Below, in pieces: positions 9,829-63,658 of a stretch of 64,000 nucleotides of DNA; within the stretch, counting starts at the first letter, position 1; each line of letters opens with the position of its first letter. The notes beneath the pieces were generated by a model. That model had not been told where the DNA came from and did not search any database. It saw nothing but the letters and a program-made list of their open reading frames with translations. A program made the position numbers and the translations under genes. The stretch is from Candidatus Omnitrophota bacterium (lineage in GTDB: Bacteria > Omnitrophota > Gorgyraeia > JABMRN01 > RBG-13-46-9): contig JABMQJ010000016.1 of the NCBI GenBank assembly GCA_013203315.1, positions 4,956 to 68,955 of the forward strand, written 5' to 3'.

Positions 9829-10905
9829 ATGCATTTTAAAAATTTTGATAGAACGTTATTTTTTGCCACACTGGCGATTCTTCTCATAGGCCTTTTGACG
9901 CTTTATAGTGCTTCAAGAGAGTACCATTCTCAGGATATTGTTTTTCGCCAGGTATTCTGGATAATTTTTGGCATTGTGGTTTTATTCGCAATCTTGCGCG
10001 TGGATTATCAAAGGATTGCGAGCTTGTCTTACATATTTTACGGCGCAACACTACTTTTTCTTGTTATGGTTTTATTCTCCGGAAGAGCGAAGGGCGGCGC
10101 GCATCGCTGGATAAGCCTGGGCTTTTTCAACCTTCAACCCTCGGAGCTTGCAAAAATAACACTTATCTTGGCGCTTTCTTCATACGCAAGCGTTAGAAGA
10201 AGCGATGTTACCAAAATAAGTTTTTTTTGCAAAGCATTTCTGCTCGCTATCCCCGCATTTCTCCTAATTCTCATAGAACCCGATCTTGGCACGGCACTTT
10301 TGCTTATACCGGTAACGCTTGCAATGCTTTACATGGCCGGTGTGAATGTTATGCATATTTTGGGCGTTATGCTTCTAGGCCTGGCGTCTTTTCCTGTTTT
10401 TTGGCATTTTCTGAAAGGGTACCAGCGGCAGAGGCTATTTGTTTTTATAAACCCTAATATTGACCCGCTCGGTTCGGGCTATACAATAATACAATCGAAG
10501 ATCGCAGTCGGTTCAGGAGGGATCTTCGGTAAGGGATGGCTTGCGGGAACGCAGAATCAACTAAATTTTCTGCCGGAACGCCATACGGACTTTATTTTTT
10601 CGGTGGTAGGCGAGGAGTGGGGTTTCGTAGGCGCGCTTGTCCTTATACTATTGTATGCATTGATCGTGTACAGGGGGATAAAAATTATCGAAACTACTCC
10701 CGACACATGCGGAAAATTAATTGCTACGGGCCTTGTAACGCTTTTCACCCTTCAGGTCCTGATTAACATCGGCATGACCATTGGTTTTTTGCCTGTAGTC
10801 GGACTTACCCTACCGCTTATAAGCTACGGAGGCTCAAGCCTCATAACAACGCTTCTGTGTATCGGCCTATTGCTTAATATTGGTATGAGAAGGCCTCTAT
10901 TCTAA
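9829..10905 (+). CDS. rodA: SEDS-family peptidoglycan polymerase RodA
   Basis: FtsW/RodA/SpoVE family 10-TM topology, conserved 'PELGT'-like 'EPDLGTALL' and 'FLPERHTDFIFSVVGEEWGFVGAL' motifs; co-located with mrdA. Confidence 0.85.
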   Translation: MHFKNFDRTLFFATLAILLIGLLTLYSASREYHSQDIVFRQVFWIIFGIVVLFAILRVDYQRIASLSYIFYGATLLFLVMVLFSGRAKGGAHRWISLGFFNLQPSELAKITLILALSSYASVRRSDVTKISFFCKAFLLAIPAFLLILIEPDLGTALLLIPVTLAMLYMAGVNVMHILGVMLLGLASFPVFWHFLKGYQRQRLFVFINPNIDPLGSGYTIIQSKIAVGSGGIFGKGWLAGTQNQLNFLPERHTDFIFSVVGEEWGFVGALVLILLYALIVYRGIKIIETTPDTCGKLIATGLVTLFTLQVLINIGMTIGFLPVVGLTLPLISYGGSSLITTLLCIGLLLNIGMRRPLF

Positions 10906-10919
10906 ATTATATCATAATA

Positions 10920-10948: not shown

Positions 10949-11003
10949 TTTTAAGAATAGTTTGTTTTTTTGAAAGAGGCTTTAAAAATTTTTAGGGGGT
11001 AAA

Positions 11004-12089
11004 ATGGCGATAGATATCAAAAGTTTGCTGAAGATTATGTTGGAAAAAAATGCTTCGGACTTTCATGTCACCGCAAACACACCCATTCATTTGAGGATTG
11101 ACGAAAACTTGCATGCGCTGAACAAAGAAATATTGAGCCCACAAGACACAAAAGCAAGTGTGTACGCTATCCTAAATGACGATCAGATAAAGCAGTTCGA
11201 GAAAGACCTGGAGCTCGATTTTTCTTTTGAACTAAAAGATATTGCCAGGTTCAGGGTAAATATTTTTTACCAGAGGGGCGCTGTAGGTTGTGCGATAAGA
11301 CTCATACCTTATGAAATAATGAATTTTGAGCAGTGCGGGTTGCCTGTAAAAACGACAACCAAACTTTGCAAAGTGCCAAAAGGCCTTGTGCTGATTACAG
11401 GAGCGACGGGAAGCGGCAAGTCCACCACTCTGGCGTCTATGGTGGATTATATTAATAGCAATCGGCCTTGTCATATAATAACGATAGAGGATCCTATTGA
11501 ATTTGTGCACAAAAATAGGAAAGCTATTGTGGACCAGCGTGAAGTATATAAAGACACCCATTCATTCGGTGCCTCCTTGAAGCGCGTCTTGAGGCAGGAC
11601 CCTGACGTCATACTAATCGGAGAAATGCGAGACCTGGAAACGATTGAAAGCGCCTTGATAATCGCCGAAACAGGGCACCTGGTTCTTGCTACCCTTCACA
11701 CTTCTGATGCCGTGCAGACAATAAACAGGATAATAGACGTTTTTCCCGCGCACCAGCAACAGCAGATAAGAACACAGCTTTCATTTGTTCTTTCCGGGGT
11801 CCTCTCCCAGCAACTTATTCCGAAAGCAGGGAAGTCCGGCAGGGCCCTTGCTACCGAAGTTTTAATAGCAACACCTGCAATAAGAAGCTTGATTCGCGAG
11901 GGCAAGGTTCACCAGATATATTCAGTTATTCAAACTACGCAAAAAGAGGGCATGAAAACGATGAATCAGGCGTTAGCAGATCTTTGCGAAAGCGGTGCGG
12001 TATCGCTTGAAGCGTGCCAGGAAAAATCCACAAATATTGACGAGCTTTACAAATTAATTAAAAGTCCGGTAAAAGGAAAGGCGAGTTGA
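11004..12089 (+). CDS. pilT: Type IV pilus retraction ATPase PilT
   Basis: PilT-type N-terminus 'MAIDIKSLLKIMLEKNASDFHVTANTPIHLRID', Walker A 'GATGSGKSTT', Asp box/Walker B 'VILIGEMRD', His box 'GHLVLATLHT'; ~360 aa with no N-terminal MshEN domain. Confidence 0.85.
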   Translation: MAIDIKSLLKIMLEKNASDFHVTANTPIHLRIDENLHALNKEILSPQDTKASVYAILNDDQIKQFEKDLELDFSFELKDIARFRVNIFYQRGAVGCAIRLIPYEIMNFEQCGLPVKTTTKLCKVPKGLVLITGATGSGKSTTLASMVDYINSNRPCHIITIEDPIEFVHKNRKAIVDQREVYKDTHSFGASLKRVLRQDPDVILIGEMRDLETIESALIIAETGHLVLATLHTSDAVQTINRIIDVFPAHQQQQIRTQLSFVLSGVLSQQLIPKAGKSGRALATEVLIATPAIRSLIREGKVHQIYSVIQTTQKEGMKTMNQALADLCESGAVSLEACQEKSTNIDELYKLIKSPVKGKAS

Positions 12090-12092
12090 AAA

Positions 12093-12566
12093 ATGCTTCC
12101 GTTTAAACGTCTTGTAAAAAAACAACTGGGAGAATTACTGATAGAGCGCGGCGTTATTACCCGCTCGCAACTTGAAAAAGCACTCCAGATTCAAAAAGAA
12201 AAAGGCGGGCTCCTGGGCCAGATACTTGTTGTGTTGGGTTTCACAAAAGAAGAAGAAATAGCCCAGGCCCTCACCATTCAGTATGGTTTCCCATATCTGC
12301 CATTACAGAATTATGAATTAAACAAGGAAGTTGTCAAGCTCATACCCGAAAGCGTGTCAAGACAGTATTGCTTGATAGCGGTAGACAAGATAGGCGATAC
12401 GCTTACGGTGGCGATATCTAATCCGCTGAACACGAAAGCCATTGAGGATGTGGAGCTCCTTACTAAATGCAAGGTACAGGTTTTTGTGAGTACGCTGACG
12501 GATGTCGGTAAAGTCATCGAAAAGATATATGGAAAAGATAAAAAGCCGAAGGAGGCCGAGGGCTAA
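12093..12566 (+). CDS. Standalone MshEN / T2SSE_N-domain protein (putative c-di-GMP receptor)
   Basis: Two tandem 24-aa MshEN-type motifs separated by a 5-aa spacer: 'QLGELLIERGVITRSQLEKALQIQ'-'KEKGG'-'LLGQILVVLGFTKEEEIAQALTIQ', followed by a second GspE_N-like fold ('LIAVDKIGDTLTVAISNPLN'). No ATPase domain. Confidence 0.7.
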   Translation: MLPFKRLVKKQLGELLIERGVITRSQLEKALQIQKEKGGLLGQILVVLGFTKEEEIAQALTIQYGFPYLPLQNYELNKEVVKLIPESVSRQYCLIAVDKIGDTLTVAISNPLNTKAIEDVELLTKCKVQVFVSTLTDVGKVIEKIYGKDKKPKEAEG

Positions 12567-37198: not shown

Positions 37199-39091
37199 AT
37201 GTTCGAAGCGCTGAAGATTTATAAGGGACAGGCTATTGACCTTGAGGAGACGTATCGCACCCTGACCGAGTTCGGGTATAAGAGGGTAGAAGCGATAACC
37301 GAAGAGGGCGACTTTAGCGCAAAGGGTGAAAACATTTTCGTATTTCCCGCCACTTTTGACTATCCCATTCGGATCGAATTGTTCCACAACGAAGTAGAAG
37401 GCATAAAAACCATCGACCCTGTATTGTACAAGGCCATATCGGACCATGAGATGGTTATTGTTCTGCCGATTAAGGGAATGCTCCGTAAGCGGAAATACAG
37501 GCCGCGTAAAATCCGCAAAGAAATCGACCCCATCGACACGTTTGTCGATATCGAGCCGTCTGATTACGTAGTCCACGTTGATTACGGTATTGGAAAATAC
37601 TTAGGCATTGAACGAATTAAGACAAAAACCGGCGCCGAAGACCATCTGGTCCTTGAGTACAAAGACGGCGACAAGTTATATGTGCCTTTTGAGGATCTGA
37701 ATAAAATCCAAAAATATATTGCCTTTGCCAAAAGGGCGCCGAAACTTTATAAAATCGGAAGCCGCAAATGGTCGCAGGCCAAGGAGCGTGCCCGTAAAAG
37801 CGTTGCGAGGGTAGCGTTTGAAATTCTGGAAATTCAGGCCAAAAGAAATATGCTGAACGGGTTTTCGTATTCCGGGGATACCGACTGGCAAGGCCTTCTG
37901 GAAGAATCGTTCCCACATAAAGAAACGAAAGACCAGATTAGGGCTACCGAGGAATTAAAAAAAGACATGGAGAGAAAAAAGCCCATGGATCGTCTCCTGT
38001 GCGGTGATGTGGGATACGGTAAAACCGAAGTGGCTTTGAGAGCCGCATTCAAGGCTGTTATGGACAATAAGCAGGTGGCAATTCTCGTTCCTACTACGAT
38101 TTTAGCCGAGCAACACTATATAACTTTCAAAGGGCGCATGAAGGAGTTTCCCGTAAATATCGCGATGCTAAGCAGATTTAGAACAAAGGGCGAGCAAGAT
38201 GTTGTTGTTGAGGACCTGCGCTGTGGCAGGGTAGATATTGTGGTCGGAACGCATAGGCTGCTTTCAAAAGACGTAAGCTTTGGCGACTTGGGGCTTGTTA
38301 TAATCGATGAGGAGCAGCGCTTCGGCGTAAAACACAAAGAAGAACTAAAGAGGCTTCGGCTTGTTGTCGATGTTCTAACACTTACCGCTACACCCATTCC
38401 GCGCACGTTATATCTTGCGCTCATGGGCGGAAGAGACATATCCGTTATCGATACGCCGCCGCTTGAAAGGCACCCCATCCAGACGCACATAACAGAGTTT
38501 GACGAGCAACTCGTAAAAAAATCCATAAAGCGTGAAATAGCAAGAAAGGGCCAAGTATATTTTATTCACAATAGGGTCCAGGGCATAGAAAAAGTATGCC
38601 AGCGTTTGAGGGGGATGCTGCCGGATATACGCATTACAATCGCACACGGCCAGATGAAAGAAAAAGAGCTGGAAAAAACAATGGGCGAGTTCATAAAAGG
38701 AAATATCGATGTTCTTGTCTGCACTACAATTATAGAATCCGGGATAGATATACCGAACGCAAATACAATTCTTATTAATAACGCTGACAGATTTGGGCTT
38801 GCAGATCTATATCAATTGCGCGGTAGGGTCGGGAGGTTCACAAGGCGCGCATTTTGTTACCTCATAGTAAACCATATTCAAACCCTGACGGGCGATGTTC
38901 AAAGGCGGCTTAATACAATAACGAAATATCAAGAGCTGGGGTCCGGCTTCAAAATCGCTATGCAGGACCTGGAGATCCGGGGTGCCGGCAATCTCCTGGG
39001 CACCCAGCAGCACGGCTTCATTGACAGTGTCGGCTTCGACCTTTACTGCCGCCTCCTCCGCGACGCCATCAGCGCGGTCAAAGCAAAGTAA
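37199..39091 (+). CDS. mfd: Transcription-repair coupling factor Mfd, short form (630 aa) lacking the N-terminal UvrA-binding module and the D7 region
   Basis: UvrB-homology remnant 'IFVFPATFDYPIRIELFHNEVEGIKTID', CarD/TRCF RNAP-interaction domain 'DYVVHVDYGIGKYLGIERIKT', Mfd-specific helicase motif I 'PMDRLLCGDVGYGKTEVALRAAF', DEEQ box 'LVIIDEEQRFG', motif VI 'QLRGRVGR'. Protein ends shortly after the TRG region. Confidence 0.8.
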   Translation: MFEALKIYKGQAIDLEETYRTLTEFGYKRVEAITEEGDFSAKGENIFVFPATFDYPIRIELFHNEVEGIKTIDPVLYKAISDHEMVIVLPIKGMLRKRKYRPRKIRKEIDPIDTFVDIEPSDYVVHVDYGIGKYLGIERIKTKTGAEDHLVLEYKDGDKLYVPFEDLNKIQKYIAFAKRAPKLYKIGSRKWSQAKERARKSVARVAFEILEIQAKRNMLNGFSYSGDTDWQGLLEESFPHKETKDQIRATEELKKDMERKKPMDRLLCGDVGYGKTEVALRAAFKAVMDNKQVAILVPTTILAEQHYITFKGRMKEFPVNIAMLSRFRTKGEQDVVVEDLRCGRVDIVVGTHRLLSKDVSFGDLGLVIIDEEQRFGVKHKEELKRLRLVVDVLTLTATPIPRTLYLALMGGRDISVIDTPPLERHPIQTHITEFDEQLVKKSIKREIARKGQVYFIHNRVQGIEKVCQRLRGMLPDIRITIAHGQMKEKELEKTMGEFIKGNIDVLVCTTIIESGIDIPNANTILINNADRFGLADLYQLRGRVGRFTRRAFCYLIVNHIQTLTGDVQRRLNTITKYQELGSGFKIAMQDLEIRGAGNLLGTQQHGFIDSVGFDLYCRLLRDAISAVKAK

Positions 39092-39170
39092 ATCTTTCTC
39101 TTTATAAGAAGCAAGAGACGTAATTCCTTTCCTCGCAACCAGAAGCTTGTGCGGCATGCTATATTCTAAC

Positions 39171-39328
39171 GAATGAGAGAGTATGGGCGTGAGGCTTTTT
39201 TGTGCGGTCTTGTAGGAGACCCTTTCTTTCCGCAATAATAAATATAAACATACACCTTACTACAATTTTTTGAAGAAGAAAGGGCTCCGTCGTTAAGTAC
39301 CAAGCCGCACGCCAATACTCTCTCATTC
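39171..39328. repeat. ~158-bp palindromic intergenic element, copy A (long imperfect hairpin with conserved core)
   Basis: Outer arms 'gaatgagagagtatgggcgtgaggc' (39171-39195) and 'gccgcacgccaatactctctcattc' (39304-39328) are reverse complements (2 mismatches). Inner arms 'ggagaccctttctttcc' / 'gaagaagaaagggctcc'. Core 'aataataaata-aaca--c-ttactacaattttttgaagaagaaag' is shared with copy B at 63448-63604. Confidence 0.7.
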
Positions 39329-39365
39329 CGTTAGTTTTTATCTCAATCTTTTAAGGCATTTAGGC

Positions 39366-39394
39366 TTGCATATAAGAGAGTATTATGATATATT
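39366..39394 (+). promoter_or_regulatory. Putative promoter upstream of the first PPIase gene (TTGCAT-17-TATATT), possibly producing a leaderless mRNA
   Basis: TTGCAT 39366-39371, 17-nt spacer, TATATT 39389-39394. The ATG at 39402 lies 7 nt downstream of the -10 with no obvious SD. Confidence 0.3.
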
Positions 39395-39401
39395 TAGTGT
39401 C

Positions 39402-62529: not shown

Positions 62530-63453
62530 ATGCTTAAAAGTAAAGCTTTCCCCGCCGCTATTGTAATTCCTGCACTTCTATTTCTTGCAGGTTGCTCCGA
62601 AATTCCGGTCGGCACAAAGAATACTATTCTCATGGATACCTTTGTAAGCGTCGAAATCAAAGACTCCTTAGACAAAAATTTAAAAAATCAAATTCTCAAT
62701 AAAACCATAAGCCGCATGAGAAGCCTAACGAAGGGATTTAATTACTTCGGAGATGAAAGCGAGCTTGCGCGGATAAACAGCTTAAAGCCAGGCGAGGAAC
62801 TCTTGCTTTCGGACGAGATGTTTGCAGTGCTTAAAACATCTCGGGATATCTTTGCTAAGACCGGGGGTGCTTTTGACGTTGCGATGGGGAAGGGTGACTG
62901 GAAGCTAGACGAAAAAAAGCATGCAATCGTAATTGAAGAAAGCGGCGTTAAGATAAATTTAGGCGGTATAGCAAAAGGCTTTATCGTAGATGAAGGGATC
63001 AAGGTACTAAAAGATGCCCTCGTTCGCAACGCAATCATAAATGCCGGCGGTGACATGTACTGCATGGGTCAAGGAACGGATGCAAAAGGGTGGAAGATAG
63101 GTATCAGAGACCCGGTAAATACAAAGAAAGTTATAGCCTCATTTAACGTTCGCGACAGGGGCGTAGCTACTTCCGGTGGATATGAAAGATTCACGAAATC
63201 CGAAAACGGAAAGTATTCCCATATAATCGACCCTAAAACAGGCGAACCCATAAAAATTATTACAAGAAGCGTCACTGTCGTAGCCGACGATTGCGCAACA
63301 GCCGACGCCCTCGCAACCGCGCTATATGTCCTTGGTCCCAAAAAGGGCCTCGCCCTTATCGAAATCCTCAAGAAAACTGAATGCGTCATCATCGACACCG
63401 ACGGCAAATTCTACGTCTCCTCCGGTCTCACAGACCTTATTTCTACGGAATGA
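62530..63453 (+). CDS. apbE: ApbE-family FAD:protein FMN transferase lipoprotein
   Basis: Lipobox 'LLFLAGCSE', ApbE motifs 'GGAFDVAMGKG', 'LGGIAKGFIVDEG', 'GVATSGGYERF'. Confidence 0.8.
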   Translation: MLKSKAFPAAIVIPALLFLAGCSEIPVGTKNTILMDTFVSVEIKDSLDKNLKNQILNKTISRMRSLTKGFNYFGDESELARINSLKPGEELLLSDEMFAVLKTSRDIFAKTGGAFDVAMGKGDWKLDEKKHAIVIEESGVKINLGGIAKGFIVDEGIKVLKDALVRNAIINAGGDMYCMGQGTDAKGWKIGIRDPVNTKKVIASFNVRDRGVATSGGYERFTKSENGKYSHIIDPKTGEPIKIITRSVTVVADDCATADALATALYVLGPKKGLALIEILKKTECVIIDTDGKFYVSSGLTDLISTE

Positions 63454-63604
63454 GAGGGCATTGGTGTGAGGCCATTTGTACAATCCTATAGGAGATCCTT
63501 TCTTTCCAAAATAATAAATAAATACATTCAGCTTACTACAATTTTTTGAAGAAGAAAGAGTTCCGTCGTTTATTGCCAGGCCTCACACCAATGCCCTCTC
63601 ATTC
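63448..63604. repeat. ~157-bp palindromic intergenic element, copy B (overlaps the apbE stop codon)
   Basis: Outer arms 'gaatgagagggcattggtgtgaggcc' (63448-63473) and 'ggcctcacaccaatgccctctcattc' (63579-63604) are perfect 26-bp reverse complements. Inner arms 'ggagatcctttctttcc' / 'gaagaagaaagagttcc'. Core shared with copy A. Confidence 0.7.
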
Positions 63605-63629
63605 CGATAAGAACGCACAAGCTTCTGGC

Positions 63630-63658
63630 TTGACAAAAAGCGGCTGATACTATATAGT
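63630..63658 (+). promoter_or_regulatory. Putative sigma70 promoter for the tRNA(CAT)-tilS unit (TTGACA-17-TATAGT)
   Basis: TTGACA 63630-63635, 17-nt spacer, TATAGT 63653-63658, ~27 nt upstream of the tRNA 5' end. Confidence 0.45.

Follow-up and report, generated by a model that had tools for sequence, protein, structure and literature searches.

The window analysed in this work, a 64-kb stretch of a Candidatus Omnitrophota genome, contains two palindromes of about 160 bp, and raises the question of whether such elements are conserved RNAs or repeats that spread as DNA. The two copies, designated A and B, are probably members of a family of ~160-bp non-coding foldback repeats that is MITE/REPIN-like, belongs to a narrow clade of Candidatus Omnitrophota and forms mosaics with two further modules, M2 and M3. 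The family is multi-copy, is gained and lost between close relatives, occurs in both orientations even at the same locus and decays to solo arms.

Anatomy of copies A and B

Copy A (39169..39330, + strand) scored 181.8 bits on the + strand and 62.2 bits on the − strand with the covariance model R1, and copy B (63446..63606, + strand) scored 195.9 and 78.8 bits, respectively. The initial annotation had placed palindromes of ~158 bp at these two sites; both were recovered, with ends (CGGAATGAGAG...CTCTCATTCCG) lying 1–2 nt further out and with one extra flanking module each. A repeat search gave outer arms of 27 nt for A (39171-39197 and 39302-39328; 93% complementary, two mismatches) and a perfect 28 bp for B (63446-63473 and 63579-63606; 100% complementary), in agreement with the terminal inverted repeats first described, and the arms were separated by 104–105 nt in both copies. 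Across the family the terminal inverted arms measure 27–29 bp and start with CGGAATGAGAG; the arm sequence of the element is CGGAATGAGAGGGTATTGG, and its sub-arms are poorly conserved. Inside the arms lies a polypyrimidine/polypurine inner stem (CCTTTCTTTC / GAAGAAAGG; in A about 39215-39229 with 39273-39288), and the centre is asymmetric, A/T-rich and contains a nearly invariant 27-nt core (39256-39282 in A, 63532-63558 in B). The shared 27-mer of the core, CTTACTACAATTTTTTGAAGAAGAAAG, occurred exactly twice in the window (shuffle expectation 0.00), and no occurrence beyond A and B was found there at up to three mismatches. The two copies had a mean column identity of 86% over ~200 columns and an identity of 82% across the 160-nt element, and the alignment bore out that their arms differ yet stay complementary, the differences being matched in the opposite arm.

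The element was rejected as a small protein gene: six-frame translation revealed no frame open in all copies, and the concatenated frame translations had no relatives at E ≤ 1 in a set of 5.8 billion proteins. No sigma-70 promoter was detected inside A or B by the sigma-70 scan.

A separate 17-nt exact match to the core, GCTTACTACAATTTTTT, was present at 26840-26856 among the final ten codons of an ORF (26448-26870) for a pseudopilin-like protein, with no other part of the element nearby; by composition, the chance expectation of this match was ~2e-4.

Genomic context and neighbouring promoters

As initially annotated, copy A lies just 3′ of mfd and copy B on the stop codon of apbE. Copy A starts 79 nt after the stop codon of a 630-aa Mfd (37199-39091) and is followed by a gene for a PpiC/SurA-type lipoprotein. 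Copy B overlaps the TGA stop of ApbE (62530-63453), with the TGA (63451-63453) located inside the left arm in the terminal repeat GGAATGAGAG, and the genes after it are tRNA-Met and then tilS. The ApbE stop codon is likewise a TGA inside the terminal repeat in locus L028 of a third species (10288-10290), and in locus L023 of a Black Sea MAG ApbE has its own TAA (10913-10915), 2 nt ahead of the terminal repeat. The window Mfd, with only 630 aa as in all close homologues, possesses UvrB_inter, CarD_TRCF_RID and helicase domains and gave no C-terminal TRCF domain hit.

The promoter-like sequences reported after the two copies do exist, but they are those of the host genes ppiC and tRNA-Met and lie outside the element. 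The sequence after B (TTGACA-17-TATAGT; 63630..63658, +) matched 11 of 12 positions in the scan and is kept in L023 upstream of the orthologous tRNA-Met. The one after A (CTTGCAT-17-TATATT; 39366..39395, +), scanned as TTGCAT-17-TATATT, fell below the promoter-scan threshold and has a counterpart (CTTGCAT-17-TATTAT) in the relative L034, where the mfd–ppiC spacer is 62 nt long and contains no element. Since they are conserved in relatives with or without the element, these promoters are not element-borne. Every copy was found directly after a stop codon or before a promoter. The copies lodge in the stretch that separates a gene's stop codon from the promoter of the gene that follows, and do not bring promoters along.

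Distribution of the family

Exact-pattern scans with 20-mers from the core covered 185,579 species genomes and a metagenome collection, and each yielded one true further copy, namely copy C in a Black Sea Omnitrophota MAG (L002) and copy D (L007), respectively. The model R1, built from copies A–D, and blastn were run on the loci around exact copies and around homologues of window proteins; the Mfd and ApbE homologues of the window all came from Candidatus Omnitrophota MAGs, and the DNA examined amounted to ~350 kb in total, without any complete genome. The copy count that the initial annotation called for came to 11 full or partial copies, A and B included, plus two remnants that consist of a solo arm; they were spread over at least five Omnitrophota populations that are related to one another. 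Copy E belongs to the window's own population and lies ~4.9 kb to the left of the window. In L018, a relative with 93% Mfd identity to the window, the full copy F lies between argS and mfd, and copy G, interrupted in its core, lies downstream of mfd. In L035 (90% Mfd identity) two copies at the two contig ends flank mfd. Copy H, split by an insertion sequence (IS), follows apbE in L023, which comes from the same Black Sea MAG as L002, and copy J follows apbE in L028. The two solo right arms were both in L023 (12742-12781 and 20455-20490). Another three relatives, at 79% Mfd identity, had no copies in ~52 kb. Viral contigs gave no matches in three pattern scans, one of them with the arm, and a phage or viral origin was rejected.

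Contigs of the window population from five independent assemblies (JGI, Logan) ended or started inside A, B and E, mostly in the core and otherwise in the arms. Breaks inside the core are the expected effect of a repeated sequence on short-read assemblies, and the few copies in the database scans are probably explained in the same way: assemblies break at the repeat, so that the family looks rarer than it is.

At the gathering threshold, Rfam identified only the tRNA-Met in the whole window; in E-value mode copy A matched only a plant miRNA-precursor model (30.5 bits against a threshold of 140 bits), and nothing was found for the L023 copy. A known RNA family was therefore rejected as the identity of the element, in line with the original statement that no described family has this core, and a full-text literature search for palindromic repeats of Omnitrophota returned no relevant reports.

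Gain, loss and orientation of copies

The argS–mfd spacer is 25 nt long in the window and 540 nt in L018, where it holds copy F together with other repeats as a mosaic, and the mfd–ppiC spacer is 310 nt in the window compared with the 62 nt in L034. Presence and absence of copies differ among relatives with 90–93% Mfd identity. The direction of each full copy could be read from its asymmetric centre (R1 ~180–196 bits on one strand, 60–80 on the other). At the ApbE 3′ end, the copy in the window is + and those in L023 and L028 are −, with the left arm at the same place in all three and the stop codon supplied by the element in two. At the mfd 3′ end, the copies in the window and L018 are + and that in L035 is −. 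Three species whose ApbE proteins share only 75–83% identity have all kept the element at the 3′ end of ApbE. Relative to the neighbouring genes, the orientation of the copies was roughly half and half, which is a poor fit to a cis-regulatory RNA.

Subfamilies cross genomes: copy E of the window genome is 93% identical to copy C of the Black Sea MAG, with which it has its junction to module M3 in common, and H shares 90% with both F and G, whereas A and B, though in one genome, share only 82%. Most copies have TA on both sides, TA being itself palindromic. The sites available for a comparison of target duplications (argS–mfd in the window, mfd–ppiC in L034) differ by whole mosaics or are too diverged, and offered no clean empty site. 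It is from the distribution of the element that we infer its mobility.

In a further MAG (GCA_049642705.1; L022 9039-13606), it is mfd alone whose orientation is reversed with respect to argS and ppiC. In both L018 and L035, mfd has a copy of the element on either side, the two in opposite orientations, and such a pair could mediate an inversion of mfd like that in L022.

Flanking modules and other intergenic repeats

Module M2 (CCAGAAGCTTGTGCGGCATGCTATATTCTAAC; 39139..39170, +) is an outer extension of the palindrome that in A is present only on the left side. Its 15-mer also occurs, reverse-complemented, to the right of B, where a shortened M2 (63607..63628, −) abuts the −35 box of the tRNA-Met promoter. 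In copy D, M2 (CCAGAAGCTTGTGCG...) is present on both sides and the palindrome reaches ~232 bp. Module M3 (..TTATAAGAAGCAAGAGACGTAATTCC..; TTATAAGAAGCAAGAGAYRCAATTCC) is a separate short repeat located just after stop codons that travels with the element. It has one copy in the window (39093..39132, +) and occurs elsewhere after a giant ORF (L002 7255-7295), next to copy E (L016), after mfd (L035 1975-2015) and five times in L018 (9474, 9775, 9862, 11905 and 12085), where it forms inverted pairs around 55–150 nt. M3 looks like another small family of palindromic elements.

Other long inverted repeats, unrelated to the element, were seen in the same kinds of spacer (L019 11890-12140, L023 12560-12740 and L028 10363-10410), and the clade seems to be generally rich in palindromic intergenic elements. 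Tandem short repeats of CCGAAGGACCTTT were also noted between tRNA genes in L023 (20185-20250).

The conserved core and its insertion sequence

The 27-nt core was identical in five of the seven copies that span it (A, B, C, D and H), with one change in F and two in J, and E and G were identical across the parts present. The TAGGAGAYCCTTTCTTTCC and TCCGTCG blocks were also conserved, while the arms differed by 10–18%. In L023, copy H is split by an IS of 1412 bp (10985-12396) of the IS110/IS1111 family (Pfam DEDD_Tnp_IS110 and Transposase_20). The IS has subterminal inverted repeats, and its transposase gene is followed on the 3′ side by a non-coding region of 251 nt. The core of H is interrupted in its middle, between AAAATT and TTGTAG, the IS being joined to CAAAAAATT on one side and TTGTAGTAAG on the other, with TT on both sides. 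Copy G, at a different locus in a different species, is interrupted at the same core base and in the same orientation, and the 30 nt that adjoin it there (L018 12261-12290) are identical to the end of this IS. The core is hence a specific landing site of an IS110/IS1111-family insertion sequence.

Targeting of REP-type repeats by IS110-family elements has been described (PMC1525189, PMC11208160), and the accounts of these elements attribute the targeting to guide RNAs (PMC1525189, PMC11187229, PMC11208160). The IS1111 group is characterized by subterminal inverted repeats, a non-coding region 3′ of the transposase and target choice by a seekRNA (PMC11187229). Between the core and the 251-nt non-coding region of the IS, the only matches were of 6–7 nt, too short to call a seekRNA guide.

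The near-invariance of the core, against an arm divergence of 10–18%, is more than a selfish repeat in decay would require and speaks for a further function. It suggests that the core has a putative sequence-specific partner, which the IS merely exploits. The core contains CAAnnnnTTG, which we take to be a weak IHF-like resemblance; the remainder of WATCAANNNNTTR is missing. The sigma-70 scan, six-frame translation and Rfam gave no promoter, ORF or RNA match that would explain the core. A bolder reading, which we put forward as possible and only tentatively, is that the element is a long-lived hairpin replicator with a dedicated partner. The core, carried on a co-varying stem, would be the putative recognition site of a protein that binds single-stranded DNA or RNA, and the whole would be an Omnitrophota counterpart of the REPIN–RAYT system with the opposite conservation (centre conserved, arms free); an IS1111-type recombinase with a guide RNA would have adapted to the core as its safe landing site.

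Folding, arm co-variation and the RNA alternative

Folded as RNA, both strands of A and B reached −64 to −72 kcal/mol (z −7.9 to −10.9), none of 200 shuffles being as good, and on either strand the predicted shape was one long rod; the DNA fold of B had a z of −10.7. The long rod-like hairpin with a conserved centre that had been predicted from the sequence, and its stability against shuffled controls, are thereby supported. Most of the signal came from the outer arms, as the central 104–105 nt folded alone were weakly structured (z 0.07 to −3.0). Co-variation was assessed in six full copies, H being rebuilt by removal of the IS. The compensatory pattern persisted in this larger set: the consensus structure comprised 44 pairs with 94.3% of cells paired, compared with ~50% in slid controls, and four pairs had double-sided changes (three in the outer arms and one, pair 53/116, in the inner stem), a result matched by only 3 of 500 shuffles. 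F and H exceed the other copies by 2 nt in each of their arms. At arm position 23, where an A·G mismatch recurs, B instead has A-T and C has C-G. The arm mismatches comprised two of G·U type on the + strand, two on the − strand and five of transversion type, and hence had no G·U strand bias.

The initial annotation took the compensated arm changes as the signature of a conserved RNA rather than a mobile element, on the premise that the terminal repeats of a MITE must be identical between copies. That premise is not a valid discriminator, and the inference is not supported in view of the multi-copy, dynamic distribution of the family and the precedent of REPINs, as well as the unbiased mismatches (2/2/5), the evenly divided orientation and the host-owned promoters. 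Compensatory hairpin changes are "common" in mobile REPINs (PMC3116915), and template switching between inverted-repeat arms is described as homogenizing the arms and inverting the spacer without any selection (PMC8604942). As both of these can also yield compensated changes, such changes fail to separate RNA from DNA. Both products of template switching, homogenized arms and an inverted spacer, are observed in this family.

A structured non-coding or cis-regulatory RNA family, in which the covarying stem would present the 27-nt core loop as the functional protein- or RNA-binding part, is considered unlikely, even though several points speak for it: A, B, C, D and H have the same core while their stems change with compensation, the folds are very stable (z down to −10.9), one compensated change falls in the inner stem and three species still carry the element at the 3′ end of ApbE. 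Against it, both strands fold about equally well, the centre alone folds weakly, the mismatches lack a strand bias and no promoter is predicted inside the element; the orientation relative to genes is mixed and differs at orthologous loci, and Rfam gave no match. Solo arms, presence/absence differences and repeat mosaics are, moreover, typical of repeat DNA.

Other alternatives

It is also quite unlikely that the element is a host-domesticated 3′-end element, immobile now, which would act as a bidirectional transcript stabilizer or terminator and would have been inherited vertically and homogenized by gene conversion. The location of all copies close behind a stop codon or ahead of a promoter, the supply of the ApbE stop codon by copies in two species, the persistence at the ApbE site in three and a hairpin that is functional in either orientation would all fit such a role, as would the T-run 6 nt after the stem of copy A. 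An intrinsic terminator scan, however, made no call corresponding to the main hairpin or covering the element, and B and most other copies have no T-run after the stem. The invariant asymmetric core is not explained by a hairpin function, and close relatives have empty sites (argS–mfd in the window compared with L018; L034).

An inverton, with the arms as recombination sites and a ~105-bp centre that flips to alter the expression of a neighbouring gene, would account for the centres that face opposite ways from one species to another at shared ApbE and mfd sites, with arms and flanks in place, and the inverted mfd of L022 has also been counted in its favour. It is very unlikely, as the available contigs from five assemblies of the window population were all + at A and B, with no inversion polymorphism among them, and orientation differed only between species. 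No invertase or recombinase gene was listed near any copy, the centre contains no promoter and the downstream genes have their own conserved promoters, while template switching is known to invert spacers as a by-product (PMC8604942).

Integron attC-like sites are effectively refuted by context, for although the copies are imperfect palindromes 3′ of genes with a conserved structure and recurrent mismatched bases, and IS1111-type elements target attC sites, the RYYYAAC / GTTRRRY boxes are not kept in the flanks of most copies (on direct reading, only C and E fit GTTRRRY), no integrase was listed, and the copies lie 24–44 kb apart, in both orientations, among housekeeping genes.

Proposed mode of spread and significance

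The preferred reading, a MITE/REPIN-like foldback repeat, implies that the element would spread or be reshuffled at the DNA level, whether through recombination between copies or as a non-autonomous element dependent on a putative enzyme acting in trans. No transposase with matching ends was found in the ~350 kb examined, and RAYT (Y1_Tnp) was absent from the Pfam lists of the fetched loci (~350 kb, no complete genome). The complementarity of the arms might be maintained in two ways, of which one or both may hold: the active form could be a hairpin in single-stranded DNA or RNA, or template switching during replication could copy changes from arm to arm and occasionally flip the centre. When co-transcribed with the upstream gene, the element in either orientation would give a hairpin of about −65 kcal/mol at the mRNA 3′ end, which, like REP, ERIC and Correia elements, could stabilize the transcript or bring about its termination.

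With these results, a repeat family and clusters of mosaic repeats become known from a metagenome-only phylum without earlier descriptions of such elements, and the element explains the fragmentation of these genomes' assemblies at particular intergenic sites. The results provide a natural case of an IS110/IS1111-type element that uses a conserved multi-copy repeat as its insertion site, and a caution that compensated changes within an inverted repeat do not by themselves establish an RNA gene.

Comparison with known systems

The family is previously undescribed, and its best place is among the MITE, REPIN, ERIC and Correia-type elements and the BIME-like mosaics. It has the small size, the terminal inverted repeats (27–29 bp) and the absence of coding capacity by which MITEs are recognized. 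The Correia elements of Neisseria and the ERIC/IRU, YPAL and RUP MITEs are 100–170 bp long, have terminal inverted repeats of ~26 bp, are intergenic and are co-transcribed into stable RNA hairpins. The Omnitrophota element is similar in size, terminal repeats and intergenic position, and most of its copies are flanked by TA as in Correia elements, although TA is palindromic and a duplication is thus not demonstrable; it differs in that the arms vary between copies with compensation. We know of no sequence relationship to Correia, ERIC, YPAL or RUP elements, and of no parent IS. The joining of the element with M2 and M3 into mosaics resembles the BIMEs of enterobacteria.

The core also resembles the targets of the bridge RNA/seekRNA-guided IS110 and IS1111 elements in being a conserved multi-copy intergenic sequence into which insertion is orientation-specific, with a 2-nt core (TT) at both junctions. 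The L023 IS, with its subterminal inverted repeats and 251-nt non-coding region 3′ of the transposase, resembles IS1111 elements as portrayed in PMC11187229; unlike in the known guide systems, only guide–target matches of 6–7 nt were found here.

The closest parallels are shared with REP sequences and REPINs. The element is extragenic and multi-copy, its two inverted arms and spacer would form a long hairpin in single-stranded DNA or mRNA, it undergoes compensatory changes across the hairpin (PMC3116915), it decays to singlets, it forms mosaics with other short motifs, and, like REP sequences, it is targeted by the IS110 family (PMC1525189). In contrast to REPINs, the arms are not small palindromes and do not have a terminal GTAG. 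Folded alone as DNA, they reached only −0.7 and −1.4 kcal/mol (z −0.3 and −0.8) and formed no hairpin of their own, and the arm was rejected as a REP unit. The loci examined here contain no RAYT gene, and the host phylum is Omnitrophota. Conservation is also reversed: REPINs have conserved arms and a free spacer, whereas in the Omnitrophota element it is the centre that hardly varies and the arms that differ.
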